IMG/VR virus record: IMGVR_UViG_3300034691_000049
Coordinates: 8,810-72,809 of that record
Direction: 5' to 3' (one strand)
Length of the DNA stretch: 64,000 bases
Source of the DNA: a virus
The notes beneath the pieces are model-generated. The model searched no databases, had not been told where the DNA came from, and worked only from the letters and a program-made list of their open reading frames with translations. This document shows, one piece after another, positions 17,926 through 35,583 of this stretch (positions are counted from its first letter, which is position 1; each line of letters starts with the position of its first letter). The translations under genes were made by a program, and so were the position numbers.

Positions 17926-20900
17926 ATGGCAAACGGCGACGAGAACAACGGTTTCGACCAACTGTTCCCTGCCGGCCTGCCTGCCGCAAAAACAGGGGGC
18001 TTCCGCCCCCTTTTTGATTTGTCTGCAAAGGCTGATCAAGTTGCGGCAGCTTCTGTTGAAAAGAAGCAAGCTCTCGTCAATAAGCTGGGTTACGACGTTG
18101 AAGATACCGTGGGCGCTGCGATTAACTTCGGTGCGTCCTTTGTGTCGGGGGCTAGCCGTTTGGCTGGCAACCTCACAACCCTGCCTATTGATGCGATCTC
18201 TGGTTTGGCCCAAGGCTCTGTTCCTGAAGAACAGGTTCAAGCATACAACCGACTGCAAACTGGCCAAGCGTCTGACGCTGACCGGGCATTGCTCGATCAA
18301 ACTGCACCGCTCGACGATGGCGTACCTCAAACTTACCTGCAACGCCTGCAAGGCACGCAAGGTCTGCAAGAAGTAGCGCAGAACGTCGATGATTTCTTCA
18401 ATATTGACAGCATCGTCGATCAAACCAACCGTGAGCGTCTGAGCCGGGATCTCAAAGAGAACACCGGTGATGGCGTCAACCGTCTGCGTTATGCGGCGGA
18501 AGCGTTCAAGATTGGTCACTATAAAGACGCGCTGACTGAAGGCTTCGGTGGTCTCGATTCGACCTTGAGCGAGGCGTTGAAAACTGCGGCAAGCAGTCCA
18601 GTTGCTACCGCCGAATACGTGGTAGAGAACATTCCACAACTGCTGGCTGCGGCCTACAGCGCCCCCGTGATGGCTGCATCGAACGCCGGTTACGGTTATG
18701 ACGCCTACCGTGAAGGTGTGCGTCAATACTTCGACCAGAACAACGGCCAACTGCCGAACGCCAATGAGCGTGCGAAGATGGGCCTGTTTGCTGCATCCGC
18801 GGCCCTGGCTGAACAAGTTGGTGACGCCTCCATGCTGCGCGGCTTCCGTGCGGCGGGTACTGGCACTAGCTCCAAGGCCATGGCTGCGGCTGCGGGAATT
18901 GTTGGTGCAATGACACGCGAAGGCGTGACTGAGGGCTATCAAACCTACGCCGAATCCAAAGCCAAACTGGAAGACGCATCTTTGGAAGAAATCGTCGAAG
19001 GCGCTACCATTGGTGCGCTTGTTGGCGGTAACTTCCACGGTGCTGTAGAACTGGGCCACCTTGGCGGTCCTAAACAAGATCCGGCCGCTCGTGCCGCATC
19101 TACTGAAGCATTTACCAATGCTGTTGAATCTGGTGACGTTTCGTCGCTGGCTGATGCAACCTCGCCGACTTACAACCCGGTTCGTGCTGTTGAAGCACTG
19201 CACCAGTTGAACTTGACGCCGGGTGCTGATGTTGACGCAAACCTTGCTAAAGCTGACGAAATTCAGCAAAACGTGACGGCTGATGTGTCGTCGATTCAGG
19301 CTCGCCTGGACAACACCTCCCCGGAGGCTGTTGCCCGTATTGGTGCCATTGTTGATCAGCTTGAGGCCGCTGGTGCAGACCAAGCCCAAATCGCTGAAAT
19401 GCGTGACATTCATGAGGCTGTATCGAGTTACACCCCAGCACAACGCAAAGCTGACCAAGCCCGCCTTACCGAACTGGAAAGCCAGTTGGGTCAGATTTAT
19501 TCGGCATCCGAGCGCTTGCGCGTAGATTCCAGCCCTGAGCAGGCTGAAGTCGAGGCCATCGCTACCCAAGCACAGACAGGCGATACCCAGGCGGCTGACC
19601 GTCTGCTAACCCTGACCATGATCAACCCTGATTCCGTGGACACCCAGATTGCCGAGTCTCTTGCACAGAGCGAAGCACTGTCTGAGCCGCAACGTACTGC
19701 CATGCGCCTTTTCAGCGAGGCTCAGGTGGCAACCAACGCCCTGAAAGGCCTTACTGGCGTACGTTCGGACATTGCCACTGGTGGCGACGGTTTCAAAGGT
19801 ATCTCGCAATATCGCAATGCAATCCGCATGGCCCTGGCCAATGGCAACGAAGACGCAGCCCGCTCGCAAGTCGATGGCATCCGCGCATTCGCTGACAGTC
19901 GTGTGTCGAAACTGAACGCTATCACCACTGCCTTCAAGCAAGTGAAGGGCACTGATAATTCGATCAACATCGTGCGTAATGAGCAAGGCGAATGGGGTCC
20001 AACTGACCTGAAGGGCTCTGCCCTGAAGAAAGCTGGTGGTCTGGTAGTTGACGCACGTTCTTTCAAGCTACGCGACGGTGTAGCTGCGGAAGCTGACGCT
20101 TTGACGAAAACTGCTGCTGCAATGGAAGCTCTGGTAAATGCTGCTCCATCTCCTGTTTCGGCGCCGGTTGTGCAACCGACTGCCGCAGTACAGGGTGAAG
20201 TTACCCCGGCAACTCCTGAAGTTGCAGCCACGCCGACTGTTGACCCTGCACCGGTAGCTCCGGTAGCAGACAAGGCACCTACGTCCGCTGTAACTGAAGA
20301 AGCTGCGGTCACACCAGAAGAAGCCCCGAAAGCGGCCGAGTCGGCACCTGCAAATGTAGGGCAGCTCACTGTAATCGGCGAGCGAACTGGTGCGGCGGTA
20401 ACTGCCGACAACTACCGTTCTGTCAATCTGGTTTCGGAGCTGTTTGAACAACAGGCCGGCAACGAGACTGATGCAAGCGTTCGCCCGCTGGTAGCTGTCA
20501 AAGACTTCGCTTCTGCGATCCGTGCAGGCGAAGTGCAGGCCAAGGACTTTATCGACCAGAAAGGTGACCTGACTGGCCCGCAAACCCAAGCCCTCAACGC
20601 TTTCTTTAACTTCGCGCAATTCTCTGCGCAAGCGATCCGCAACCAATTTAAGGTGACGGAATCTCGCGCTAAACGCCCGGACTTCTTCTACCGGGACATG
20701 GCGCAGTTCCTCCAGAACGCGGATGGGCAAATTGATGAGAACGTGGCGACTGCCGTCTCTTTTGGCATGTTCTCTTGGGCTAACGAAAACGCAACTCAAC
20801 TGCGTAACTCCGACGAGGCAATCAACGCTATTCTGTTGAACGAACTCGATTCTGAGATCTCGTCTGCTGCATACAAAGAACTGTCGCTGATCGGTACGCG

Positions 20901-23900
20901 TGAATCCGTGGTTGCCTCGCAACTCGGTGGCCGTATCGTTCAAGCGATGGGTCTGCGTGTCACTCAGCAAGGCACTGCCGCTGAACTGAGCAAGCTGGAA
21001 GCTTCTATCGGTACGCGAGCAATCGCTGCCATGGAGAAGCTGGGCATCGTTGAGCGCGTACAGCTCTCGGACGTGAAACTCCAAGCGCTGATGGACTCCA
21101 ATGAAAAAGGCGATCCACGCGTCAAGCACACCTTCGTCCGGGTTAAATCGGAAGAGGTGAACGGTAAGCGTGAAGCCAGCCCAATCACCAAGCGTATCCG
21201 CGAGCGCAACGTCGGCTCACAGTCCGTGGTGAACAAGCTGATGTCGGTGCAAGCTGCTGGCATTGAGCCGAGCTACACCCCGATCAAATTCGACCAGGCA
21301 TTCGCCAAACGCACCGGACAAGAAGTGCCTAAAGGCCTGGCCACGATCCTGAATAAAGAAGGCGCCAAACCCCACGTCGTTCGTCAGAACATGTGGCACG
21401 TCTGGGGCAAGTTGAGCAAGCAGGCGTTGTACGAGATGGGCGGCGTGGTCTCCACGACTGACAACCCTACTCACGTTGAGAACCTGGATTCCCGCCGTGC
21501 AAAGAATGACGGTCTGATTCAGCAAGTCGATAACCTCGACACCTTCATCAACGCAATGTCGGCCGATCCAAGCACCAACGGCCTGGAACAGGAAATGTTC
21601 TTCGGGCGCTCGGTCTGGAAGCCTCAACGTGTTGGTTTGACCGCAAACGTGGTGAACCCGCAGACTTCGAAGATCCACCGTCACATGCTGGCCATGAAAA
21701 GCTGGAATGCGTCCATTGACTTAGCTGATGCTGCGTCGATGAACAACTTCAAGCTGCGTGTGCTGGAAGCGTTCGGCAAGAAGACCGAAGCGACCAATAC
21801 CCCTGTTGTTCTGGCTGGCTACGATGCTGTTGTGTCGAACCCGGCAATTCAAGCAGGTGTTGACGCTTTGGTTGATGTGCTGCGCGATACTGGTGAAACC
21901 AATGAAAATGCAATCGTTGCTGCGGTAAAAGCTGGCGGCGAGAACTTCCATTCGTTCGACGCATTGGTAGCCCTGGCTGAGCAGCGCATTGCTGAACAAG
22001 ACGGTAAGCCTGCGTTCGAAACCAGCATGATGGGTGAAGTCGATGGTGTGACCAACGGTCCTATGCTGTCCCTGCTGATGCTGGGCGCAAAAGGCTTTGA
22101 AACCATGAACCAAGGTGGGTTCTTCCAACTGGATAGCCCGTTCACTCAGTTCAATGACTTCCACGGAGTTGATGGCAACCTCGACCTCTATGAGTCGAAC
22201 ATTGCTGGCGCTTTGAACCGTCTGCAAGGCCGTAACGTCAACATGCTGCAAGCAATGCAGACCATCACCGGTCAACTGCAAACTGCCGAAGGCAACGTGA
22301 CCTCTAAAGGCCGTAACATCATCAAGAAGCCGCTGACTGCGTTGATGTTCGGGTCCAACCCGAAAACTGCGGTAGAAGGCATGGCTGACGGCTTCGTTGA
22401 AGCGATCTACAGCCGTATCGAAGATGCTGCTGCAAAGCGTGATGATGCTGCCATTACTGAGCTGTTCACCGCGGTCAATACCTTGCTTCGTTCGCCAAAG
22501 GCTGCACTGGATGCGAAGATGGGTTATGCCCGGGCACTTGAGACCAAACTGAATGATCAGCAAAAAGCGGCCCTGAAGAAGTCGTTCTATGAGCTGCTGG
22601 GCAAGCCGACTGAAGATGCACTGGCTGACAACTACGCGACCTTCATTGCTCGCCGTAACGTGATCAACCAGACCGCACAACTCTCGTTTGACCTGTTCAA
22701 CGCAGTGCGTGACGGTGTAACCGAGTTCGTTGAGCAGTCGAGCCCTGAAGTTGCACGTAACAATAGTGGTGAGGCGATTCGCACCTTGACCAAAGAGCAA
22801 CTGGCACAAGTCCAGGAGCTGATGGGCGATATGGCGCCAATCCTGCAAACTGCTATGTCTCAGGCGGCAAAGCAACGCGAAGCTGGCATGTACATGGCGA
22901 AGTCGCAGCGTAAGCTGGATTCCTCGCTGCCGTACGAGCAAGAAGTCGCATTCGGTGAATTGGTTAACACCATCGCACCGGACGGCCAAATGCAGGGCAT
23001 CGGTTCGTCTCGTGTCTCGTCTTCGCGTACCGAAGACATTGACCCGGGCGTAATGCCGTTCATTACCTCGATTCACTCCAGCGACTCCAACATATCGCAC
23101 ACTGCTATTGGTGATAATGATGTGTTGAACGTGCACGATGCTCACGGCGTTGGTTTGAATGACATCGCCACAGCGGGCCAGCGGCTGAACAAAGCCACCT
23201 TTGATACCCTGCTGAACTACTCCTCGCCGACGGCTATGGCCAACATGCTGGATGAAGTGCTGGCCGGTGTGTCCAAAGTGATGCAGAACCCGGAACTGGC
23301 AGCACTGATTCAGCCAAAGCTGCGCGAGAAGATGATTCAGCGCACTGAGAAGAAGCGCGGCGGCATTGCTGAGCAACTGACCGCTATCCGTGAAACTGCC
23401 AAGCAGGCAGACACTGACAAGCTGAAAATGATGGCCGAGTTGAAGGCTATTGGTCAGTACGCCACAGAAGGTGGTTCGTACCTGGTGAATGACGCAGACC
23501 GTGAAGCTGCATCCAAGAAATTGGGTGAAGTGGGAAGTTCGTTCAACGAAGCTGCTGAATCGGTTGCTGAAATGCTGGACGTTGCCGCTGCTGTCGATCC
23601 TGCTGTGTATCAGCCAGGTCAAACAGCCGTGCTGTCCAACACCTCGGTTACCACACTGGCGCCGGCCACTTCCCTCAATACTCTGGCTTCGCTTGAGCAA
23701 ACTGAGGCGGTGGCCAAGGTCATTGATTCCATGGTTTCGGGTAACCGGACTTTGGCTGATGCTGTGCAGGTTCTGCCTGAGCATCAAGCTGCCGAAGTGA
23801 TCAACGCTGTCAATGGTGCATCTGAAGCGAAACTGTCGGTATGGGGCCAACTGGGCTCGCCGGTAGTGCAATCTGACGTGAATCTGGTGGAACTGCTGGA

Positions 23901-26900
23901 AGGTAACAACCTGACCGCACACAACCTGATCGACTCGATGGTTGCCTACGTACAAGACCCGTTCCAACGCACTGTGTTGCAGATGGCCAAGAAAGGTATC
24001 CCGGCCAACCTGCCAGTGAACTATGTCACCTCCGAGACCGGCCCTGAAGGCGCGTTCGGTGAAGGCGTGGATAAATCCCGTGGTTGGTATGCACAGCGTA
24101 ACAACACCGAAGCTTTGTTCGTGAAGTCGCCTGAATTCGTTGAATCGGGTATCACCCCGGAAATGCTGACCCACGAACTGGTTCATGCTGCCCTGGCGAA
24201 CCTCGTTGATGCCCATGAAGGTAAGAACACTGCCGTCGGCCGTGCTGTTGCTGATCTGGAGGCCATCCGCACCAAAGCTGCCGAGTTCATCGACAACAAC
24301 GGCGCACTGTCGGCCCAGTTCCGCAATGCCACTGCAAACGTGCATGAACTGCTGGCATGGGGCCTGACCAACAAGGCATTCCAACGTGACGTGCTGTCGC
24401 AGATTCAAGTTGAGCAGAAAAACGCCGGCTTGCTGTCTGGCCTGCGCAAGTTCATCAACAGCTTGACCACCATGCTGTTCGGCACCAATAAAGTGTCGGA
24501 AAACAATGGTATGGCCAACCTAGTGGCGAATGCTGCTGGCCTGTTCCAGGAAGCGGCCGCTGTACGCGACTCCCGCTCGGCAAGCACCCACAAGTACGAA
24601 GATGCTGTGGATCACATCAATGCCATGACTGCTGAGCAAGTGTTTGATGCACTGGCTTCGGTGTCGGGCACCCAAACTGACCCACGCCACACTGAGTACC
24701 TGAAGAACCTGCTGAACGAGACAGTTGACCCGATCTACGGCCCTTACGGTGCATTCAAAGAACAAGCAGCGGCTAACCGTGCATTCACCCCAATGGATGT
24801 ATTCCTGAAGGCTGTACAGACCGGCAAACTGCCATTCAGCTCGGAAGCGACCACCAATGCATTCATCCTGTCGCAACAGGAAGCGTTTGTACTGGAATCG
24901 GTTCAAGCTACTGTGGCTTTCGCCATGGACCAAAAGGAAACCTTGTTTGCACGCCAAGGGCTGGAAAACCTGTTCAAGGAAGCGCGAGCTACCCTGAAAC
25001 CGGCCAACTTCCACAAAGGTGTCTGGGCTACCGCAAGCCAGAATGAAAAGGATATCGCCCAAGCGAAGTTCGACTTCATCTTCCGTCCACAGGCTGCAAT
25101 CACCAGCAAAAACGCATACCTGTCGCGCTTTGCTGCACTGGGCCTGGCATCGGCTGAAGTCCGCAACGTAATGGCGTTCTCGACTGCGAACTTGGACGTT
25201 CCGTTGAAAAGCCTGCCATGGGCAAGCCGCCTGACTGAAATCTTCCGTCGGATCATGACTCGCCTGTCTTCGCTGGCGACTAAGACCACCCCGGGCCAAG
25301 CTGGCAACCAAGCGCTGAGCGCCCTGGTAGAGCAGATGGTGGACATCGAAGCCAAGCGTAAAGCTCGCTTCGGCCAAGACAAACTGGGATCCCTCGACCA
25401 AATCGAGACTGTCCTGTCGGCTGCCGGTGAAAAGGTTCGCGAGAAGGCGGATGCCTTCGGCCAATCGAAGTTCTTCCGTCAATCCCGTATCCCGGGTGTC
25501 CCATTCGTGGGTGCGGCGATCTCGACTGTTGCAGGCGACCGTCTGGATGCAGTACTGGACCGGATCACTGTGACCCGAGACCATTACTTCAAAACCCGTC
25601 AGGGCCTGATGATCGGTATCGTGAGCGAGTGGCGTGGTGTCTACGACTCCCGCCGTCTGGCTGCCGAACTGTTCAAAGGGGCCAAGGCCATCGAGCAAGA
25701 ACGCAAGGCTGTGATTGAAAACACTGCCAGCGCGGTCAACGGTGCCTTCGTAAACCAAGGCCAGGATCTGACCCAGGACCAGCGTGATGCGCTGACCAAA
25801 GTCTTCCTGCGTACCAACGCCCAAGCAATTGCTGCGGTGAAAGGTGTGTCGGGCCTGCGTGACCTGATGGAAGATCCGGCTCAGATGGCAGCGTACCGCG
25901 CCGATCTGGAAGCCCAGGTCAAAGCCATCACCGGCAACTCGCAGTACATGATCAGCCAGGCCAAAGACTTGGCTCACCACAAGGTAATTGGTGGCGCGAC
26001 CTCGGCCAACCTGATGCTGTCCACCGGCAACATTGCGGCGATGTACGGCACCAAAAAGGCTGGGCAGGATGCTCATCTTGTTGCTGGTTTGACGCCGTTG
26101 CTGGAGCAGTTGGTGGGTGTCTATGGCCTGCAATATTCGGGTGACGTGGATGTCAACAATGCCAAGCAGGTACTGCGCACCGAGATGAACCGTCAAGACG
26201 GTGGCAACGGTGTGGAATACATGCTGAAGCTGCACACAGGCCTCCAGGAGAAAGCCCGGAAGGATCTGTTCGCCGGTACTGAAGCACTACAACAAACCGG
26301 TTACGTTGCCGAGATTCACGACAACAAGATCGAAGTGTTGCTGGTCTCTCAGGCAGACGTGGCAGCTCACCTGCGGGCCGGTTACGAGGTAGGCACCCGT
26401 CTGCAAATGGACCCTAACGTCAAGGCACTGCAAGGCGGTTCCCGTGTCCTGATGACCCGTCGAGGCTCTGGCCAGAACGCATTGCTGACTGGCGCCCTGT
26501 CGTTTACCGGGATGAACTCGAAAGGTTCCAGCCCGATCACCGAAGCGCTGAACATGATGCAAGGTACGCAGACCACGTCTGCCGCCGTGCGCCAGCAGAT
26601 TGCGGCGGCCAAAGCCGGTGCGATTACCGACTTGTTCAACCGTGGCCCAAATTACGACCCACGGAATGCACAATCTGGGCACATGGCCCCCACCCTGGCA
26701 CCTGACGGCCGCATAGCTGACTACCGTCACCTGATGGTCGAACACAACCGCGATGTCCTACTGGACCGCGATAATTCGATGGATCAGGTGATGGGAGTCA
26801 TGGCCGGTCAGATTACTGACAAGGTGTCGTCTGCTTCGCAGAATGCTGATGTGGTTCGGTCGATGTACGACCAGTATCGTGCTGATTACACCTCGCGGCC

Positions 26901-28074
26901 GGCTTCGTACCTGCGCGTGGCTGCTGATAGCAATGATGCAACCTTGGCTGAGGCATATCGCCTGCTGCCGGAGAGCACCAAGAAAGAAATCAAGAAAGTC
27001 TGGAAAGAAGAGGCGATGTACGTCCCTGCTGACCAAATCGACCTGATTTTTGGCTATCGGAAATTTAGCCTGACCAACGCATTCGCTGCGCTACCGACTG
27101 ACCGTAACTTGTTCGAAAAGACCCTTGTTGGGATCACTTCGGCCATGTTCGGTGAGAAAGCTGCACTGCGGGTTGGTCAAGCTGAAGACATCATCCAGGC
27201 GCTGGTCAAAGAGATGAAAGACATCCTCGTTGTGAAGAACGTGCTGACCTTGGCAGGCAACATCATGTCCAACATGACTTTGCTGGCTTGGGAAGGTGTT
27301 CCACTGCAAAAGGCTGTCGCTTCGCACGCAATCGCAATCAAAAGTGCTCTCGATTACCGTAAGGATTCGAAACGCTTGATGCAGTTGCAGCAATCGGTTG
27401 ATATCGGTTATTACGCCGACGTTGCCGGTGCTGAAGCTGAAATGGTTGAGTTGCGGGATCGTTTGGCGCGTAACCCGATCAAACCGCTGATTGATGCCGG
27501 CCTTATGCCGACAATCGTAGAAGACGTTGAAGTTGACGATGATCGTTACACCTACAAGGCTCAACTGGAGCGTAAGGTAGAACGGTTCACTTCTAAGGTG
27601 CCAGCATGGATGCGTACTGTCGGTCGTCAGGTCTACATGACTCACGATACCGCCACGTACAAATTCTTGAGCCAATCTACTCAATTGTCTGACTTGGTTG
27701 CACGTTATGCGCTCTTTGAGCACGCAACTACTCGCAAGAAAGATCCTTTGAGCAAAGCTGACGCATTGCGTCTGGCTGAGGACAGTTTCGTAAACTACGA
27801 CCTGCCTTCGCACCGTACCCTGCAATATCTGAACGATATGGGTATTGTGATGTTCACCAAGTATTACTTGCGAATCCAGAAGGTGATTATGCGCTTGGTG
27901 CGGGAACGCCCAGCACGCGGGCTGATCTTGGCCACACTGGAACATTTCATCTCTGGTTTGCAGTCTGTGATGGATTCTAGCTGGGTTGACAAGATCGGTA
28001 ACAATCCACTGCAAGACAGCGCACTTGGTTACCTGGGTTCGTTGAAGGAGTTGCCTGCAATCAAACTTTTGTAA
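17926..28074 (+). CDS. virion-encapsidated RNA polymerase (N4 gp50-like), 3382 aa
   Basis: Size; motif A EVDGVTNG, motif B RNIIKKPLTALMFGS, motif C VHDA; no Cys seen. Confidence 0.95.
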   Translation: MANGDENNGFDQLFPAGLPAAKTGGFRPLFDLSAKADQVAAASVEKKQALVNKLGYDVEDTVGAAINFGASFVSGASRLAGNLTTLPIDAISGLAQGSVPEEQVQAYNRLQTGQASDADRALLDQTAPLDDGVPQTYLQRLQGTQGLQEVAQNVDDFFNIDSIVDQTNRERLSRDLKENTGDGVNRLRYAAEAFKIGHYKDALTEGFGGLDSTLSEALKTAASSPVATAEYVVENIPQLLAAAYSAPVMAASNAGYGYDAYREGVRQYFDQNNGQLPNANERAKMGLFAASAALAEQVGDASMLRGFRAAGTGTSSKAMAAAAGIVGAMTREGVTEGYQTYAESKAKLEDASLEEIVEGATIGALVGGNFHGAVELGHLGGPKQDPAARAASTEAFTNAVESGDVSSLADATSPTYNPVRAVEALHQLNLTPGADVDANLAKADEIQQNVTADVSSIQARLDNTSPEAVARIGAIVDQLEAAGADQAQIAEMRDIHEAVSSYTPAQRKADQARLTELESQLGQIYSASERLRVDSSPEQAEVEAIATQAQTGDTQAADRLLTLTMINPDSVDTQIAESLAQSEALSEPQRTAMRLFSEAQVATNALKGLTGVRSDIATGGDGFKGISQYRNAIRMALANGNEDAARSQVDGIRAFADSRVSKLNAITTAFKQVKGTDNSINIVRNEQGEWGPTDLKGSALKKAGGLVVDARSFKLRDGVAAEADALTKTAAAMEALVNAAPSPVSAPVVQPTAAVQGEVTPATPEVAATPTVDPAPVAPVADKAPTSAVTEEAAVTPEEAPKAAESAPANVGQLTVIGERTGAAVTADNYRSVNLVSELFEQQAGNETDASVRPLVAVKDFASAIRAGEVQAKDFIDQKGDLTGPQTQALNAFFNFAQFSAQAIRNQFKVTESRAKRPDFFYRDMAQFLQNADGQIDENVATAVSFGMFSWANENATQLRNSDEAINAILLNELDSEISSAAYKELSLIGTRESVVASQLGGRIVQAMGLRVTQQGTAAELSKLEASIGTRAIAAMEKLGIVERVQLSDVKLQALMDSNEKGDPRVKHTFVRVKSEEVNGKREASPITKRIRERNVGSQSVVNKLMSVQAAGIEPSYTPIKFDQAFAKRTGQEVPKGLATILNKEGAKPHVVRQNMWHVWGKLSKQALYEMGGVVSTTDNPTHVENLDSRRAKNDGLIQQVDNLDTFINAMSADPSTNGLEQEMFFGRSVWKPQRVGLTANVVNPQTSKIHRHMLAMKSWNASIDLADAASMNNFKLRVLEAFGKKTEATNTPVVLAGYDAVVSNPAIQAGVDALVDVLRDTGETNENAIVAAVKAGGENFHSFDALVALAEQRIAEQDGKPAFETSMMGEVDGVTNGPMLSLLMLGAKGFETMNQGGFFQLDSPFTQFNDFHGVDGNLDLYESNIAGALNRLQGRNVNMLQAMQTITGQLQTAEGNVTSKGRNIIKKPLTALMFGSNPKTAVEGMADGFVEAIYSRIEDAAAKRDDAAITELFTAVNTLLRSPKAALDAKMGYARALETKLNDQQKAALKKSFYELLGKPTEDALADNYATFIARRNVINQTAQLSFDLFNAVRDGVTEFVEQSSPEVARNNSGEAIRTLTKEQLAQVQELMGDMAPILQTAMSQAAKQREAGMYMAKSQRKLDSSLPYEQEVAFGELVNTIAPDGQMQGIGSSRVSSSRTEDIDPGVMPFITSIHSSDSNISHTAIGDNDVLNVHDAHGVGLNDIATAGQRLNKATFDTLLNYSSPTAMANMLDEVLAGVSKVMQNPELAALIQPKLREKMIQRTEKKRGGIAEQLTAIRETAKQADTDKLKMMAELKAIGQYATEGGSYLVNDADREAASKKLGEVGSSFNEAAESVAEMLDVAAAVDPAVYQPGQTAVLSNTSVTTLAPATSLNTLASLEQTEAVAKVIDSMVSGNRTLADAVQVLPEHQAAEVINAVNGASEAKLSVWGQLGSPVVQSDVNLVELLEGNNLTAHNLIDSMVAYVQDPFQRTVLQMAKKGIPANLPVNYVTSETGPEGAFGEGVDKSRGWYAQRNNTEALFVKSPEFVESGITPEMLTHELVHAALANLVDAHEGKNTAVGRAVADLEAIRTKAAEFIDNNGALSAQFRNATANVHELLAWGLTNKAFQRDVLSQIQVEQKNAGLLSGLRKFINSLTTMLFGTNKVSENNGMANLVANAAGLFQEAAAVRDSRSASTHKYEDAVDHINAMTAEQVFDALASVSGTQTDPRHTEYLKNLLNETVDPIYGPYGAFKEQAAANRAFTPMDVFLKAVQTGKLPFSSEATTNAFILSQQEAFVLESVQATVAFAMDQKETLFARQGLENLFKEARATLKPANFHKGVWATASQNEKDIAQAKFDFIFRPQAAITSKNAYLSRFAALGLASAEVRNVMAFSTANLDVPLKSLPWASRLTEIFRRIMTRLSSLATKTTPGQAGNQALSALVEQMVDIEAKRKARFGQDKLGSLDQIETVLSAAGEKVREKADAFGQSKFFRQSRIPGVPFVGAAISTVAGDRLDAVLDRITVTRDHYFKTRQGLMIGIVSEWRGVYDSRRLAAELFKGAKAIEQERKAVIENTASAVNGAFVNQGQDLTQDQRDALTKVFLRTNAQAIAAVKGVSGLRDLMEDPAQMAAYRADLEAQVKAITGNSQYMISQAKDLAHHKVIGGATSANLMLSTGNIAAMYGTKKAGQDAHLVAGLTPLLEQLVGVYGLQYSGDVDVNNAKQVLRTEMNRQDGGNGVEYMLKLHTGLQEKARKDLFAGTEALQQTGYVAEIHDNKIEVLLVSQADVAAHLRAGYEVGTRLQMDPNVKALQGGSRVLMTRRGSGQNALLTGALSFTGMNSKGSSPITEALNMMQGTQTTSAAVRQQIAAAKAGAITDLFNRGPNYDPRNAQSGHMAPTLAPDGRIADYRHLMVEHNRDVLLDRDNSMDQVMGVMAGQITDKVSSASQNADVVRSMYDQYRADYTSRPASYLRVAADSNDATLAEAYRLLPESTKKEIKKVWKEEAMYVPADQIDLIFGYRKFSLTNAFAALPTDRNLFEKTLVGITSAMFGEKAALRVGQAEDIIQALVKEMKDILVVKNVLTLAGNIMSNMTLLAWEGVPLQKAVASHAIAIKSALDYRKDSKRLMQLQQSVDIGYYADVAGAEAEMVELRDRLARNPIKPLIDAGLMPTIVEDVEVDDDRYTYKAQLERKVERFTSKVPAWMRTVGRQVYMTHDTATYKFLSQSTQLSDLVARYALFEHATTRKKDPLSKADALRLAEDSFVNYDLPSHRTLQYLNDMGIVMFTKYYLRIQKVIMRLVRERPARGLILATLEHFISGLQSVMDSSWVDKIGNNPLQDSALGYLGSLKELPAIKLL

Positions 28075-28153: not shown

Positions 28154-28161
28154 ATAACTGA

Positions 28162-28232
28162 TGGAGGTGGCAGGAATCGAACCTGCGTCAAACGCTTAGA
28201 AGGCGCCTGCTCTACCATTGAGCTACACCCCC
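28162..28232 (-). tRNA. tRNA with TCT (Arg) anticodon and an Ala-like acceptor stem
   Basis: Full cloverleaf GGGGGTG TA GCTC AATGGTA GAGC A GGCGC CTTCTAA GCGTT TGAC GCAGG TTCGATT CCTGC CACCTCC A; CCA not encoded. Confidence 0.9.
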
Positions 28233-28234
28233 AC

Positions 28235-28810: not shown

Positions 28811-29745
28811 GGTGTTCTGGAAGTACATCTACCGCGGCTTCCCATGGCAACACTCACTACTGAGTGGCAGATGTACCACCAGAACACCATCTAAGTGCAA
28901 ACCTCTCTTACGAGTCAGCTTGCGGAGATAATGTTCCGGGCGAGTAACCATCTCACAACTTTATAGGTTATTAGCCACAAACTTGCTTGTTCGTGTACAA
29001 CTGACTTCGGCTGAAGTTATGTTGAGATTTAAATTCATTATTCCCCTGCCCGTCAGGTCAGAGGTACGCTAATACGGCTAACTTGCACGCTCGCGTAACC
29101 ACATTTCTGTTTTTACCAAATTCAGCACTTACTCGTACTGTTAGGTACAGCGGCGGATCTTTTTAATACCCTAGGGGGTATTGGGGAACACACCGGCGTA
29201 ACAGACCACTTCCAGTTACAAATGGTCGTTATCCCTCCCGGTATGCTCCCCAATACCACCGTAAACGGCGATATTGGGTTCGATCTTATGTTCGAACAGA
29301 CATACCGACTCTATGCTCGTCGGGTCAGCAGCCCCTGCCCGGGACAAGGGTTCAAATGAGATTGGTGATGTCGGTAGTCACGGTCGGTCATCACAAGCGC
29401 GTGAACGCTCAGCTTTACCTTCAATCTCAACCTGGGTGGCAGCATGATCGGTGCTACACCTGATCAGCTTCAGCTCTCATCCCACAGTTAGGATGACTTT
29501 CGCACAGCGCTATGAGGCTGATGCCTTGCTGCCAAATTAGGTGGCACTTCAGCTTTGTTTCTGTACCTGCCGTCGCGACGGCGTTTCTGATGTCCAGAAG
29601 AAGTGCCATAAATTTCGGCTCGTTGTTTTCCAAACAGTTTTCGCGGTAACAAACGTCGTTCTGTTCGCCAACTTCAGTTGGTTTTGCTGTTCAGTACCGA
29701 TCACAGCATTATCCGATCTGTATTTACAGGAGCACGAATGACACA
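28811..29745 (-). ncRNA. candidate large structured ncRNA or array of structured RNA domains
   Basis: About 8 tandem domains closed by 6-20 bp helices; mismatches resolve to G-U on the - strand; no convincing ORF. Confidence 0.65.
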
Positions 29746-29762
29746 GGCCCCTCCTGCCTTTT

Positions 29763-30233
29763 TTATACCGGTATATGGTCCGGGGTCGCATTAACACCGA
29801 TCTCGGGAGGCCGAGACGATGTTGCTACGATCTTGCTTCGCATTTCACGGCCACGGGCTGAGCCCTTATCCCATTCCATGCGATTGAAGTCGTCACCTTC
29901 AGGGAAGGCATTGACCAGTTGTTCTGGGTCCGGGACAGTCAGTGCCTGTTCCAAACCAAGGTTGTAAGCTGCCGTCGTGACCGACGGTACTGGGTCCGGC
30001 GAAGTGCCAGTCAGTTCGTACTGGGTCATGTACCCCACATAGGAGACATTGATCAGCACAGCCGCTTCGCCTAATTTGCGCTGCTCTTTCGCAGCATTCA
30101 AGATCGGGATCGACAGACTGCGCTTGTCAGACCAGACGTATGCACTGGCCGGCATGTAACTACCGACCTGTGCGACTGACCATACCGCAAGAAACCAGTG
30201 ACGCTTGATGCTGCTGGGGTCTGCCTTGGCCAT
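29763..30233 (-). CDS. hypothetical protein (156 aa)
   Basis: GAGGT RBS; within the middle-gene run. Confidence 0.75.
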   Translation of the reverse strand: MAKADPSSIKRHWFLAVWSVAQVGSYMPASAYVWSDKRSLSIPILNAAKEQRKLGEAAVLINVSYVGYMTQYELTGTSPDPVPSVTTAAYNLGLEQALTVPDPEQLVNAFPEGDDFNRMEWDKGSARGREMRSKIVATSSRPPEIGVNATPDHIPV

Positions 30234-30276: not shown

Positions 30277-30654
30277 TCAGTCGAACAGGTTGTCGTCTTC
30301 GCCAGCGGCAGCAGGGACTTCAGCCAGGGCTTCAGTCGTGGTAGTCACAGGGACTTCCGCCGCTGCTTCGGCAACCTGCGCAGCTTCGCTTACAGCCCCG
30401 GCTGGTGCAGTGTCCGGGACTTCGGCAAGCGGTGCAGAGGTGGTCACGGTTTCGGTCGCGTCGGATTTCGACTTTGGGGCAACCGGCGCTTCCGGCTTCG
30501 GGTCGGTGTCCAGGGTGCAGATCAGCTCTTTGGTGCCGCGCTTGAAGCTGAAATCGACGGAAGCTTTGCCCGGTTCGAAGGCAGTCATGCCTTTATTGCG
30601 CAGGTCGTTGATCAGGGCAGTTTCGAGGTCAGCGTGGGTCAGAATCAGTTGCAT
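30277..30654 (-). CDS. conserved N4-like protein with Ala/Pro/Glu-rich tail ending DDNLFD
   Basis: AAGGA RBS; MQLILTHADLETAL start. Confidence 0.8.
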   Translation of the reverse strand: MQLILTHADLETALINDLRNKGMTAFEPGKASVDFSFKRGTKELICTLDTDPKPEAPVAPKSKSDATETVTTSAPLAEVPDTAPAGAVSEAAQVAEAAAEVPVTTTTEALAEVPAAAGEDDNLFD

Positions 30655-31214
30655 AATGCGGTTCCTTTATGGAATTGAATGAGTTGTTTGTACTGGTCTG
30701 TGAGCAGACCCGCATAAATCGCGCCGATGGCGTCAGCCATGTGTTCGGCGTCACCGAGCAGGATTTCTCCTTTCGGTTTCCGGGGCCAGGGGGCTTCCGG
30801 GTGTTTTGCCACAGCCCAAGCGATCATTTGCTTTTTGGTTGCCGTTCGGCTGCCAACAGTCGCAAGTTTGACCTCATTGGGCGTTACTTCAAAAAATTGT
30901 GATTTGGCGCGTAGACCGCCCAAAACCCCAATGCAGATGCCAGAACAGAGCGAGGCGCGGGCGCTTTGACTACCTTGCGGAATCTCGGCGAAGTTTAAGC
31001 TCGCTGCCATGAAAGGAGCCACGCCCTCATATAACTGGTTTGCCGTGCGCAGATCTTGTGAATTCTGCCGCACCTGCTTTCCTTCGAGCGATTCAGACCG
31101 CACAACCCGGAGAGTCTTGATGGTCACGATACCTGTGTCGGTATCTATCATACCGCCAGCTATGCCCCAATTCCGTGAGGAAGGGTCATGGCCGGCGACA
31201 GATAACCGAGCCAT
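30645..31214 (-). CDS. RuvC-like Holliday junction resolvase
   Basis: GHDPSSRNWG, EIP, TPNEVK, ATKKQMI and HMADAIG match the RuvC catalytic pattern. Confidence 0.8.
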   Translation of the reverse strand: MARLSVAGHDPSSRNWGIAGGMIDTDTGIVTIKTLRVVRSESLEGKQVRQNSQDLRTANQLYEGVAPFMAASLNFAEIPQGSQSARASLCSGICIGVLGGLRAKSQFFEVTPNEVKLATVGSRTATKKQMIAWAVAKHPEAPWPRKPKGEILLGDAEHMADAIGAIYAGLLTDQYKQLIQFHKGTALCN

Positions 31215-31765
31215 TACACACCAGCGCGAGCAAGGCGGCGTTGGAGCACTTCGACGTAGGACTTCATCAGCCCGTGTTGTTCGCGAAGGTCAGCAACCTC
31301 GTCATCTGACAGATTCAAGCTGGAAAGTTCGCCGCCGTCCAGTTTTGCTAGGAATTCAGACAAACCCATCAGACGAGCGGCAACCTGGAACATCTCGGTG
31401 ATAACGCGCTGCACATGGTCAGGAAGTTCGCGCTGTTCCTGAGTCAGTGGGCGATTACCCCGGTGGATGTCCTCAGCCAGCATGAAGCCGGCCAGCGGCC
31501 ACAGTTGGTCACGTGCATCGCGCATTGCCAGTTGTTTGCCCAGTGCTTCGTCGTAATTCTCCGGGCATACACTGCCCAGGTTCTTACCGACGACGGTGAG
31601 GCCGTTGTGCAAGGTCAGGATGCAAAGCAGGATCGAAGGTTCGATCTTGATCAGCTCCGTGGACTTGATCATGGCGTCCAAAGCAGCCGGTGTAACACGC
31701 GGGGCATTGGTGAGGCCTTTGGCTTGAATCTGGGACTCAAGCGCTTGTTCGGCGGGTGAAGACAT
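31214..31765 (-). CDS. fusion of N4 gp49/Sf6 gp66-family domain and helical-hairpin (crAss001_48-like) domain
   Basis: CILTLHNGLTVVG...CPENYDEALGKQLA...LWPLAGF, then HVQRVITE...LSEFL...QHGLMKSYVEVLQRRL. Confidence 0.8.
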   Translation of the reverse strand: MSSPAEQALESQIQAKGLTNAPRVTPAALDAMIKSTELIKIEPSILLCILTLHNGLTVVGKNLGSVCPENYDEALGKQLAMRDARDQLWPLAGFMLAEDIHRGNRPLTQEQRELPDHVQRVITEMFQVAARLMGLSEFLAKLDGGELSSLNLSDDEVADLREQHGLMKSYVEVLQRRLARAGV

Positions 31766-31810
31766 GGACAGCTCCTGAAATGGGGCCGGTTACCCGACCC
31801 AGGGTGGTGT

Positions 31811-32596
31811 TCAGTCGAACAACGAATCAACTTCGGCGCCGGACGCGTCAGTTGGGGTGCCAGCAGGACCGGCGCCGCCAGCTTCAGGCACGAGGCCTTC
31901 TTTCTTGACTTTGTCGATCACTTTGCCTTTGTTGGCTTCGACCCACTTGTCGTAGAAGTCGGCCGTCGGCGCGGCGCCGGACTGTTTGGCCTGGCGCAGT
32001 TCAGCGATGGTGCACTTGTTGTCGGCGAAGAAGATCTTGCCGATTTCGTTGCTGAAGCGGGTGATCGGGGCACCGGTTGCATCGCAGACCGGTACATAGT
32101 CGTTGCCGACTTTCTTCGTCTTGTTCTCTTCGACCTTCAGCAGGCCCAGGATGAACTGTTTACCGATCAGCTCGACCGCCATTGGCACTTCAGTCGGCAC
32201 GTCGGTTTTGGTATCGAAGTTGCGCAACTTGACGATTTTGGTCTCGAAGTTCAGCGCGTTCAGTTCTTTCTTGGCGCAGAACATCGAGATGGCGTTCATG
32301 TTGTTGAAGCCGGGCAGGTAGGACTTCTTGCCGTCACGTTCGTAGTACGGCTTGTTGCCCTTGGCATCGCCGGAGGTGACCCACTCGGTGAACTTGTGTT
32401 TACGTCCGTCGGCACCCTGGACTTCCAGAGTCATGGAACCGGCGCCGCCTTTGGACTTACCGGCGAAGGCCGACAGGATGGTCACCAGATACGCATCGGT
32501 TTCCCAGGTGAAACTGCCGCCGAGGCGGTCACTGTCGGTTTCGATTTGTTCGTTGGTGGTGTTAGCGGTGTTGGCAAAAGGGTTGAGACTGCTCAT
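31811..32596 (-). CDS. ssb: single-stranded DNA-binding protein (N4 gp45-like)
   Basis: DRLGG, WVTSG, YLPGF; acidic tail SLFD; synteny. Confidence 0.85.
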   Translation of the reverse strand: MSSLNPFANTANTTNEQIETDSDRLGGSFTWETDAYLVTILSAFAGKSKGGAGSMTLEVQGADGRKHKFTEWVTSGDAKGNKPYYERDGKKSYLPGFNNMNAISMFCAKKELNALNFETKIVKLRNFDTKTDVPTEVPMAVELIGKQFILGLLKVEENKTKKVGNDYVPVCDATGAPITRFSNEIGKIFFADNKCTIAELRQAKQSGAAPTADFYDKWVEANKGKVIDKVKKEGLVPEAGGAGPAGTPTDASGAEVDSLFD

Positions 32597-33426: not shown

Positions 33427-35583
33427 TTATGGGCGTGCCGCGAGTTCTTTGCCGACAGTGACCATGATTGAACCGAGAATCTCGGCTTCGGATAACTTGT
33501 CTGCCAACTTATCGTTGAGAGACGTAACGTGGTCCTTGATTTCGGCCCAGTTCTTCCCGGCCTCGATCAACAGACGGGCATAGCGATGCAACATGACGTT
33601 GCGGTTGCCATCGCCCGTGTTGTTGATGATCCAGCGTTCCAGATTGTCCATTTGCTGTTGGCTGCCCAACCGCTGAAGACGTTCTTCGTTTTTACTGGTT
33701 TTCGGGATGAAAGGCAGGACATCGAACAGCTCGCCATCAACTTGCTCGAAGTTGGCGTTATGCGACATCCATTTCTTGCTTCGGTGGGTACACGATTCAT
33801 CCACTTCAAACGGCAGAGATTCCAGCACGTTCTTCATGAATTCCTTGTATTCCTTCGCATCCATCTGCAACACGTAGTTCGTGGGCAGAACGATACGAAA
33901 CCGGTTTGCATCTTCGGTGTGGCGCTTGGTCGTGTAGTAAATCGCGGCGTAGTCTTTCATGAGCATCTTGGCCGTAGCCAAGTTCATGGTTCCGTCGATA
34001 TCCAGCACGATCATGTTGAAGCCGGGAATACAAGTGTCCTCGGTGCGGTGCCCGCCGTGAACGTGGTGGTTCAGCCAGTGCAGATCGGTTCCGGTAACCA
34101 GACGTTCCAATTGAGTCCACGGAGCTGTCTTGTTTGCGTAACCATGCGCCGGATGTTCACCGGCACCGCCGCGAGCATACGACACCACCATTTTGGTCAG
34201 GTCAGTGACCTTCAGCTTCTCGCCACGCAGGAATTCAATCCCGTCGGTGAAAGCTTTCTTGATGATGACGTTGTTCTTGTAGCCCCAGGCGATTGCCATC
34301 TTGACCATGTCCGAGCGCGCTGCCTGGCTGCCCTTGTAATAAGGCAAGTCCTGCATCAGGTCCGGTTCGGTCACTTCCGTGCCACAGTTCCCCAGATAAT
34401 TCGCCAACTTAACGTAGGGGCGTTCACGAGACAGCAGAAGCTCGAAAGCCTTGCCGCTTTCTTCAGCAAGCTTTACTGCTTGGTAGAAATGCGTTTCCGT
34501 CAGCTCAGGCGAGCCGTCGATGAACGCATATGCACCAGCAGCCTTCAAAGCCTTGAAGTAGCGGTGAGAAATTTCCGCTTTGCGTTGTTCTTCGTGTTCT
34601 GGCAGGGAATCTGCAAAACGCTCGCAGTCGATCTTGTACTGGATCACCAGCAAGCTGGTTTCCTTGGTCATCGTCAACACGGTGCCCATGTTGTGCGAAT
34701 CGGCCAAGTAGCCCAACTTTTCGCTGAAGGAATCGACAAACGTGGACGAAACTTTGTTCGTCATACGGTCATAGATCTCTTCGGCAGACAGCGTCAGATC
34801 GCGGGTGCTTTCTTTGCCGTAGCTGAAGAAACAGCGGCGAGCGTAGCCGGTATCGAGCAATGAAATCAGCTCGTCTTCCGTCTTGCCACCATCGAGCAGT
34901 TTCGACGGTGTACCGAACATCATGAGGTTCGTCGGCGTGTTGCCGTCGATTTCCTCGTGACGTACGTTTTCGGCTGTCACTTTGGTGATCTTCTGACGAA
35001 TGCCACCCATGTCGAACAGTTCCAGCAGTGTTGTGAGCACTTCGGCACTACCTGACAGGTTGGAACCAATTTCGTCGATGATCAAGTTCACCGAGCCGCC
35101 GTCGGCGAGCAACAGCTTGTGACGCATCTGCTTTACAGCGGCAGGTGTGCCAGAGTCGAAGCTATAAACCAGAGGACCAAGGGAAGCGAATTCCTTCTTG
35201 ATCTTTTCCAGCTCAAAGTCGTAATCCGTCGAATCCCGACTGGATCGCTTGAGTGCGATCTTTGCAAGATTCGGTTCTGCGGTGAACGGAAAGTTTTCCA
35301 GGAAACGACTGCGGAATTGGTTGGTAATTTCCTTTTCCAGAATGTTCGTCGAGAAACCTTTACCGGCACCGGAGGTGGCGAGGTTCAGGGCGTACATGTT
35401 GACTGGAATGTCACCGCGATCATGAGTGCGGATCACTACCCGCATTTGTGAGGCGATCATGCACAAGTGGAACGTCGTCAGCACGCGGAAGAACAAATGG
35501 TTCGAACTCTGTGTCTTTTCACACAGAATCCGTACCACGTCTTCCACGTCGGGGTTATGCGACATGTCTTCGACAGCTTTCAT
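33427..35583 (-). CDS. N4 gp43-like primase (with P-loop NTPase N-terminal part)
   Basis: SGAGKG, IDEIG, LDIDG, YTTKRH, RFRIVLP, GNRN. Confidence 0.85.
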   Translation of the reverse strand: MKAVEDMSHNPDVEDVVRILCEKTQSSNHLFFRVLTTFHLCMIASQMRVVIRTHDRGDIPVNMYALNLATSGAGKGFSTNILEKEITNQFRSRFLENFPFTAEPNLAKIALKRSSRDSTDYDFELEKIKKEFASLGPLVYSFDSGTPAAVKQMRHKLLLADGGSVNLIIDEIGSNLSGSAEVLTTLLELFDMGGIRQKITKVTAENVRHEEIDGNTPTNLMMFGTPSKLLDGGKTEDELISLLDTGYARRCFFSYGKESTRDLTLSAEEIYDRMTNKVSSTFVDSFSEKLGYLADSHNMGTVLTMTKETSLLVIQYKIDCERFADSLPEHEEQRKAEISHRYFKALKAAGAYAFIDGSPELTETHFYQAVKLAEESGKAFELLLSRERPYVKLANYLGNCGTEVTEPDLMQDLPYYKGSQAARSDMVKMAIAWGYKNNVIIKKAFTDGIEFLRGEKLKVTDLTKMVVSYARGGAGEHPAHGYANKTAPWTQLERLVTGTDLHWLNHHVHGGHRTEDTCIPGFNMIVLDIDGTMNLATAKMLMKDYAAIYYTTKRHTEDANRFRIVLPTNYVLQMDAKEYKEFMKNVLESLPFEVDESCTHRSKKWMSHNANFEQVDGELFDVLPFIPKTSKNEERLQRLGSQQQMDNLERWIINNTGDGNRNVMLHRYARLLIEAGKNWAEIKDHVTSLNDKLADKLSEAEILGSIMVTVGKELAARP

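Follow-up and report, generated by a model that had tools for sequence, protein, structure and literature searches.

Described sponges and their fusions

Two families of phage proteins with direct biochemical evidence as small-molecule sponges are relevant to this work. Acb4 of phage SPO1 is a tetrameric pinwheel in which four 3'3'-cyclic GMP-AMP (3'3'-cGAMP) molecules are sequestered, and its fold resembles that of double-stranded RNA (dsRNA)-binding domains (Chang et al., bioRxiv 10.1101/2024.12.30.630793). All eight Acb4 homologues assayed in that report bound 3'3'-cGAMP. The second family, Pfam PF21825, was named Sequestin by Tal et al. (bioRxiv 10.1101/2025.07.12.664507), who report that its members bind 3' cyclic ADP-ribose (3'cADPR) and that 10 of the 13 proteins assayed inhibited type I Thoeris. 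The two studies catalogue 1,331 Acb4 and 3,244 Sequestin proteins, respectively. Acb4-PF21825 fusions were the lead by which Sequestin was uncovered, and Fig. 1C of the same report presents one of them, from the N4-like Pseudomonas phage YH6, as a modelled homotetramer. Here we describe such a fusion encoded by the acb4-sequestin gene at positions 31214..31765 of a 64,000-nucleotide stretch of viral DNA (IMG/VR record IMGVR_UViG_3300034691_000049, positions 8,810 to 72,809; hereafter the window). Its product is very probably a dual sponge, holding 3'cADPR in a Sequestin dimer and a cyclic dinucleotide of the type used by CBASS (cyclic oligonucleotide-based antiphage signalling system) in the pockets of an Acb4 tetramer.

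The relative that has been characterised is gp59 of phage vB_PaeP_C2-10_Ab09 (Ab09), also an Acb4-Sequestin protein, which is reported to have strong activity against type I Thoeris and partial activity against CBASS II-A (bioRxiv 10.64898/2026.06.04.730250). According to that preprint its affinity is very high for 1'',3'-gcADPR and lower for 3'3'-cGAMP; it also binds 2'3'-cAA and triggers Panoptes. The full-length protein is a tetramer, as is its Acb4 domain, while the Sequestin domain is a dimer. The Ab09 locus comprises the gene for the single-stranded DNA-binding protein (SSB; gp57), gp58, gp59, the RuvC-domain protein gp60 (Bes1) and gp61 (Bes2). The first-pass annotation of the window had proposed one protein neutralising two signalling molecules; this idea is right but not new, having been published for Ab09 gp59.

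The fusion gene and its product

The virus record from which the 64-kb window comes has 72,809 bp and is judged 99% complete. The source genome is a 72.8-kb N4-like Pseudomonas phage that is Shizishanvirus-like. Among named phages it is closest to Pseudomonas phage phCDa, a Shizishanvirus of the Schitoviridae whose host is P. fluorescens. The DNA identity is 77.6% over the region, and phCDa_1 is 86.3% identical to the fusion protein. PF13876 and PF21825 each occur once in the genome, both within the open reading frame (ORF) 31214..31765. The gene is composed as follows (aa, amino acids; AF2, AlphaFold2).

31214..31765, minus strand: acb4-sequestin fusion gene, 183 aa, ATG start (ORF and translation)
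31772..31776, minus strand: Shine-Dalgarno-like AGGAG, 6 nt upstream of the fusion-gene ATG (from sequence)
31700..31765, minus strand: N-terminal extension, aa 1-22, with helix 4-16 in the AF2 model and without counterpart in the 147-aa Ab09 gp59
31472..31696, minus strand: Acb4 domain (PF13876), aa 24-98 (Pfam; PDB 9e4w by sequence and fold)
31424..31471, minus strand: conserved connector, aa 99-114, DIHRGNRPLTQEQREL (alignment A1, 34 sequences)
31226..31423, minus strand: Sequestin domain (PF21825), a helical hairpin spanning aa 115-180, with R120, E124, Q163 and R177 (Pfam, model)

The evidence computed here for this protein covers its membership of both families, its fold and pocket residues, a predicted oligomer and the synteny of its locus. 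The AF2 model of the 183-aa chain, built on the 34-homologue alignment A1, had a mean pLDDT (predicted local distance difference test) score of 86.8. The connector is strongly conserved in A1, with D99, G103, P106, L107, Q111 and L114 invariant and R102, N104 and R112 conserved in at least 90% of the sequences. A search of BFVD with the whole model returned 25 matches at E <= 0.001, all of them uncharacterised phage proteins; one is named as a member of the N4 Gp49/Sf6 gene 66 family, and some carry Tad2-like or RyR domains. A protein search identified 63 proteins of 178-195 aa, the window protein included, all with a precomputed PF13876 assignment. Together with the Pfam E-values given below, these homologues exclude chance as the source of the domain assignments.

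The N-terminal Acb4 domain

The N-terminal half had been assigned to the N4 gp49/Sf6 gp66 type, a family said to include Acb4. Both statements are correct. Pfam PF13876 (Phage_gp49_66) matches aa 24-98 with an E-value of 4.6e-16 and 59.5 bits against a curated cut-off of 27 (61.4 bits in the genome-level scan), and SPO1 Acb4 is placed in PF13876 by Chang et al. The protein also matches the solved SPO1 Acb4 chain 9e4w_A in sequence, with an E-value of 5.9e-4 for the single sequence and 1.2e-6 with a profile of 34 homologues.

The modelled domain has the fold of 9E4W, an antiparallel sheet of three strands (33-42, 45-52 and 57-61) with helices on its flanks (26-32, 73-86 and 88-102). A Foldseek comparison, which the first-pass annotation had suggested as a check, gave a structural match of the N-terminal domain to the Acb4 sponge 9E4W. 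The search of the PDB returned 12 matches at E <= 0.001, and every one of the ten that were listed is a chain of 9e4w, with E-values between 2.5e-4 and 6.6e-4, a probability of 1.00 and target-normalised TM-scores of 0.61-0.70. The root-mean-square deviation was 1.6-1.8 over 67-71 columns in eight of these ten chains, and 2.8 and 5.7 in the other two. Ten residues of the domain, V24, T25, P26, L52, N54, G55, G60, N62, A84 and A92, are invariant in the 34 sequences.

The C-terminal Sequestin domain

The Pfam family PF21825 (crAss001_48) matches aa 115-180 over the full length of the profile (positions 1-61 of 61), with an E-value of 6.1e-13 and 48.9 bits against a curated cut-off of 24.8 (50.4 bits in the genome-level scan). 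The pattern QRVxxE...LxxFL...QxxxMxxYxxxLxxR, which had been read from the sequence as a helical hairpin, is literally present at residues 119-177 (Q119-R120-V121-x-x-E124; L135-x-x-F138-L139; Q163-x3-M167-x2-Y170-x3-L174-x2-R177), and the link to Sequestin, made in the same annotation, is upheld by the name that PF21825 now carries. In the AF2 model the two helices span residues 116-143 and 154-180, and the domain modelled alone had a pLDDT of 93.7.

The pocket residues of SequestinA, R8, E12, Q47 and R61, correspond to R120, E124, Q163 and R177 of the window protein; we take 'O47', as printed in the text of Tal et al., to be Q47. The spacing agrees as well, at +4 from R to E and +14 from Q to R. 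Alanine substitution of E12, Q47 or R61 is reported to abolish SequestinA activity. In alignment A2, which holds seven PF21825 domains from stand-alone and fused proteins, R120, E124, Q163, L174 and R177 (full-protein numbering) are invariant.

Relatives of the hairpin were sought by sequence and by fold. Using the C-terminal 79 aa as query, tblastn returned 10 phage records, including short stand-alone ORFs and other fusions. Pfam identified PF21825 in a 68-aa stand-alone protein of the T4-like Cronobacter phage vB_Cdu_VP8, in an Acb4-PF21825 fusion of the crAss-like phage cr107_1 and in a Tad2-PF21825 fusion of Cronobacter phage JK004. T4 (Y16O) was absent from the 10 records, and it was likewise absent among the matches listed (the best 60 of 77) in a tblastn search with the 68-aa PF21825 protein. 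The link to experimentally tested Sequestins therefore runs through Pfam and the residues named by Tal et al. In BFVD the domain-only model aligned to phage proteins of 63-98 aa with query-normalised TM-scores of 0.70-0.80. One of these is a 63-aa crAss001 protein with a target-normalised TM-score of 0.91. For a hairpin of this length the E-values do not reach significance. Since no match reached E <= 0.001 despite good TM-scores, we count this search as weak support.

The 68-aa PF21825 gene of vB_Cdu_VP8 lies directly upstream of a gene for recombination endonuclease VII. This arrangement echoes the adjacency of sponge and RuvC-like genes and may be a coincidence.

The predicted tetramer

Modelling of AlphaFold oligomers had also been suggested, and when run on copies of the protein it predicted a homotetramer. 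Four copies folded with A1 gave an interaction prediction score from aligned errors (ipSAE) of 0.77 (runs 0.77, 0.79 and 0.76), against 0.02 for the best control, and the runs had at least 94% of contacts in common with a partner pLDDT of at least 85. The mark applied here was attained by 20 of 30 proteins whose solved structure is a pair and by 1 of 23 whose solved structure is a single chain.

Each copy in the model contacts the three others. One interface is formed by the beta-sheet (residues 39-66). The second combines a 'joint' of residues 52-56 and 90-101 with hairpin residues 124, 131 and 153-180, and in the third the N-terminal helix (residues 3-24) packs on residues 65-100 of a neighbouring copy. 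The hairpins are thus predicted to pair, with residues 124, 131 and 153-180 of two copies touching. The predicted assembly fits the published Acb4 tetramer carrying Sequestin dimers, which is a likeness of architecture and not a demonstration of binding.

Proposed function and ligand pockets

We propose that this two-domain sponge would blunt nucleotide-signalling defences on behalf of an N4-like Pseudomonas phage. The Sequestin hairpin would pair antiparallel with the hairpin of a second copy, and the pockets at this interface would take up 3'cADPR (1''-3' gcADPR), the signal of type I Thoeris, such that ThsA would never be switched on. The Acb4 domain would assemble four copies into a pinwheel whose inter-subunit pockets would sequester a CBASS-type cyclic dinucleotide. 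The whole protein would then be a tetramer carrying two Sequestin dimers. From the characterised relatives we infer both ligand binding and defence inhibition by the window protein.

Several observations weigh against this proposal. In a HMMER alignment to 9e4w_A, for which the contact list was taken from Chang et al. and the chain numbering equals the protein numbering plus one, the SPO1 contacts to 3'3'-cGAMP, K36, F48, E49, Y57, N63 and T70, are not kept and align to S44, L56, T57, V66, D72 and L79. The changes include both guanine contacts (K36 and E49) and the stacking residue F48. These six contacts are specific to SPO1 and are not stated to be family-defining; they bear on ligand specificity and not on membership. 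Because the guanine contacts are replaced, an SPO1-like reading of cGAMP is not expected of this domain. The Ab09 fusion itself is reported to be weak on cGAMP and partial on CBASS, and Ab09 stayed resistant when the fusion gene alone was deleted. BLASTP between the window protein and Ab09 gp59 covers the Acb4 half only, at 38% identity over 84 positions (aa 23-104, E 3e-15), divergence of the C-terminal halves being too great for an alignment by this program. For the Sequestin half, 3 of the 13 PF21825 proteins assayed by Tal et al. failed to inhibit Thoeris, and the R8A substitution had no effect. Searches of the PDB by sequence, profile and Foldseek found no solved Sequestin chain, and the best BFVD match of the domain-only model had an E-value of 0.02, helical hairpins being common folds. 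Finally, the tetramer score may reflect memory in the model, because 9E4W is a solved tetramer.

The replaced base contacts (K36 to S44, E49 to T57 and F48 to L56) would also suit a protein in which only the Sequestin half works. The Acb4 half would then be a tetramerisation scaffold, or would bind a signal other than cGAMP such as 2'3'-c-di-AMP or another host nucleotide, and the protein would effectively be a single-target anti-Thoeris factor. Ab09 gp59, which is weaker on cGAMP than on gcADPR, antagonises CBASS partially and binds 2'3'-cAA, points in the same direction. We nevertheless consider this explanation unlikely, as all eight Acb4 homologues assayed by Chang et al., divergent as they are, bound 3'3'-cGAMP, and the good conservation of the Acb4 domain in the 34 sequences argues for more than a scaffold. 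More tentatively, the changes in the Acb4 pocket and the additional helix at the N-terminus could mean that the ligand is another than those of SPO1 Acb4 and Ab09 gp59.

The locus and its neighbouring genes

The genes around the fusion recall the Ab09 locus. The features considered are the following.

31212..31216, minus strand: TAATG stop/start overlap (TAA 31216-31214, next ATG 31214-31212)
30645..31214, minus strand: RuvC-like protein of 189 aa, homologous to Ab09 gp60 (Bes1) (phrog_159, BLASTP)
30277..30654, minus strand: 125-aa protein at the Bes2 position, with a small N-domain, an acidic low-complexity tail and the tip ...DDNLFD
31811..32596, minus strand: phage SSB, 261 aa, with the tip ...VDSLFD (phrog_743, E 6.8e-60)
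33427..35583, minus strand: DNA primase, bounding the published hot spot on one side (phrog_2135, E 0; boundary role from the Ab09 preprint)
17926..28074, plus strand: putative virion RNA polymerase of 3382 aa, bounding the hot spot on the other side (ORF and position; counterparts annotated in phCDa and YH30)

The fusion gene had been described as coupled by TAATG to a resolvase gene. The TAATG junction is present, and the downstream ORF matches phrog_159 (RuvC-like Holliday junction resolvase) at an E-value of 1.5e-28. The same ORF matches Pfam RuvC weakly (E 0.016, below the cut-off) and is 41% identical to Ab09 ORF60 (Bes1) over 173 aa (E 4e-48). Of 13 related IMG/VR loci, 12 have the same 1-nt overlap between fusion and RuvC-like genes, as do phCDa and Littlefix according to their annotation. 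As in Ab09, the fusion gene lies between the primase and virion RNA polymerase genes, beside the SSB gene, and is followed by the RuvC-like gene. Placed directly after the SSB gene, it would be expressed together with the replication genes and would be translationally coupled through TAATG to the Bes1-type RuvC-like gene, followed by the gene at the Bes2 position, in an anti-signalling island of the Ab09 kind.

This setting could be read otherwise, as that of a replication or recombination accessory factor whose N-domain, similar to a dsRNA-binding domain, binds nucleic acid beside SSB and a RuvC-like nuclease. The gene does lie in the replication module between those two genes and is translationally coupled to the second, and the published likeness of the Acb4 fold to dsRNA-binding domains would accord with such a role. 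We regard it as highly improbable, given the biochemical evidence that both domain families are small-molecule sponges and the retention of the Sequestin pocket residues. The genomic context of other fusions also argues against it. JWAlpha, Pokken, QDWS595, ort11 and inbricus (Schitoviridae) each carry a two-domain homologue upstream of the small and large terminase genes, and because of this terminase-adjacent position in five other Schitoviridae we consider the fusion a mobile module that is not tied to replication genes. The terminase-adjacent site would be a second anti-defence site in Schitoviridae. In QDWS595 the gene before the homologue at this site has the annotation DUF2829 domain-containing, which we take to denote the Tad2-like family.

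Other features of the hot spot were noted. A tRNA-Arg gene (anticodon TCT; 28160-28233, minus strand) lies just after the virion RNA polymerase gene, in the variable hot spot, and the ~0.9 kb at 28900-29760, also in the variable hot spot, holds only short ORFs of at most 82 aa. A 156-aa protein encoded at 29763-30233 (minus strand), which matches phrog_7212 (unknown function) at an E-value of 9.6e-7, is the product of a conserved hot-spot gene. Its N-terminus is like those of phCDa_4 and Littlefix gp07, with a KRHWF/KHWY motif in common. This ORF gave no match when compared with Bes2.

The Bes2-position protein and the SSB tip

The 125-aa protein encoded at 30277..30654 had no Pfam or PHROG match and has 41 homologues, the window's own included. 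It is like Ab09 Bes2 in position, build and C-terminal tip. BLASTP against YH30_41 and Ab09 ORF61 (Bes2) was not significant (E 2.3 against Bes2), and hhalign against Bes2 gave a probability of 15.7% and an E-value of 0.0017 over the first 25 columns, such that the N-termini are similar and homology is only hinted at.

The tip of this protein resembles that of the SSB encoded in the same genome. In the window the two tips are ...DDNLFD and ...VDSLFD, and in Ab09 Bes2 ends in ...GGSLFS and SSB in ...PASLFS, with YH30 and Littlefix likewise; two related IMG/VR loci pair ...NLFG at the Bes2 position with ...SLFG in SSB. The last residue of both tips agrees (D/D, G/G or S/S) in all 16 phage loci that have both proteins, namely 12 of the 13 IMG/VR loci (phCDa among them; the thirteenth is cut before SSB) plus the window, Ab09, YH30 and Littlefix. 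Among the 600 stop-to-stop frames of at least 50 aa in the window, only two end in LF[DSG], and these are the 125-aa protein and SSB. Residues N122, L123 and F124 of the 125-aa protein are invariant in 22 homologues. The match is not universal, as the N4 SSB ends in ...KSLFGKK and N4 gp47 in ...NLLCLQV.

These tips raise the tentative possibility, which we consider more doubtful than probable, that the sponge, Bes1-like and Bes2-like genes are a coupled three-gene cassette whose third protein is a decoy of the SSB C-terminal tip. The mode of action of Bes2 was left open by the 2026 preprint (10.64898/2026.06.04.730250), which has no occurrence of 'C-terminal tail', and our literature search did not find the tip match. 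If true, an SSB-tip decoy would be the first mechanistic handle on Bes2, and the SSB-like tip could matter more than the fusion gene.

Distribution and variant C-terminal alleles

Searching with the fusion protein, tblastn returned 652 phage records, 63 of which cover at least 80% of the query. Among the 63 proteins of the protein search, 41 also carry a precomputed PF21825 assignment and 22 have PF13876 only. Six of these 22 were rescanned against PF21825 (cut-off 24.8 bits); four scored 14-22 bits and two gave no match. Close relatives (60-78% identical) keep the Acb4 half and have C-terminal alleles of another type, with R120, Q163 or both replaced. Such variants may reflect allele swapping, a shifted ligand or lost specificity.

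The window protein adds a divergent member, from a soil-Pseudomonas phage, to the Acb4-Sequestin fusions, the principle and mechanism of which are already published. Its locus shows that the island of SSB, sponge and RuvC-like genes also occurs outside the Litunavirus phages of P. aeruginosa, from which its characterisation comes. The assignment can be used to annotate phCDa_1, Littlefix gp04 and the 63 database proteins (the window's own included), which are labelled 'hypothetical' or nameless, and may help to select phages able to evade the Thoeris or CBASS of plant-associated Pseudomonas.

Comparison with known systems

Ab09 gp59, which has equivalents in YH6 and YH30 (Litunavirus), and the window protein have the same domain order, PF13876 followed by PF21825; Pfam assigns Ab09 ORF59 to the two families with E-values of 1.6e-23 and 2.7e-12. 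Both genes lie after SSB and before the RuvC-like Bes1 gene, between the primase and virion RNA polymerase genes. The R, E, Q, R pocket of the window protein is kept in a YH30 protein that is near-identical to Ab09 gp59, and the tetramer reported for Ab09 gp59 is predicted for the window protein. The two differ in size, at 183 aa for the window protein and 147 aa for gp59; the former has a further helix at its N-terminus (aa 1-22) and a connector that is longer and strongly conserved. Ab09 carries gp58 between SSB and the fusion, whereas the window has no gp58-like gene at that point, and the fusion and RuvC-like genes overlap by 1 nt (TAATG) in the window but by 13 nt between the annotated ORFs of Ab09. 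The host groups also differ, with phCDa, the closest named relative of the window's phage, growing on P. fluorescens and the Ab09-type phages on P. aeruginosa.

SPO1 Acb4 (9E4W), the founder of PF13876, has its Pfam family and fold in common with the N-terminal domain, and the predicted tetramer of the window protein has the beta-sheet interface and helix 'joint' described for SPO1 Acb4. In contrast to the fusion, SPO1 Acb4 is a stand-alone protein of 96 aa, and its identity to the window domain is ~21-24% in the Foldseek alignments. The stand-alone Sequestins (SequestinA, SequestinB and T4 Y16O) belong to the same Pfam family as the window hairpin and have the four pocket residues in common with it, and the pairing of their hairpin with that of a second copy is also predicted for the window domain. 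The window Sequestin differs in being fused behind Acb4 and in having an inter-helix loop ~4-5 residues longer (66 residues on 61 profile positions). Lastly, the Acb4-Tad2 fusion reported for Pasteurella phage Pm86 and the Tad2-PF21825 fusions are like the window protein in setting two sponge domains on one chain against two pathways, with a partner domain that differs from that of the window protein.

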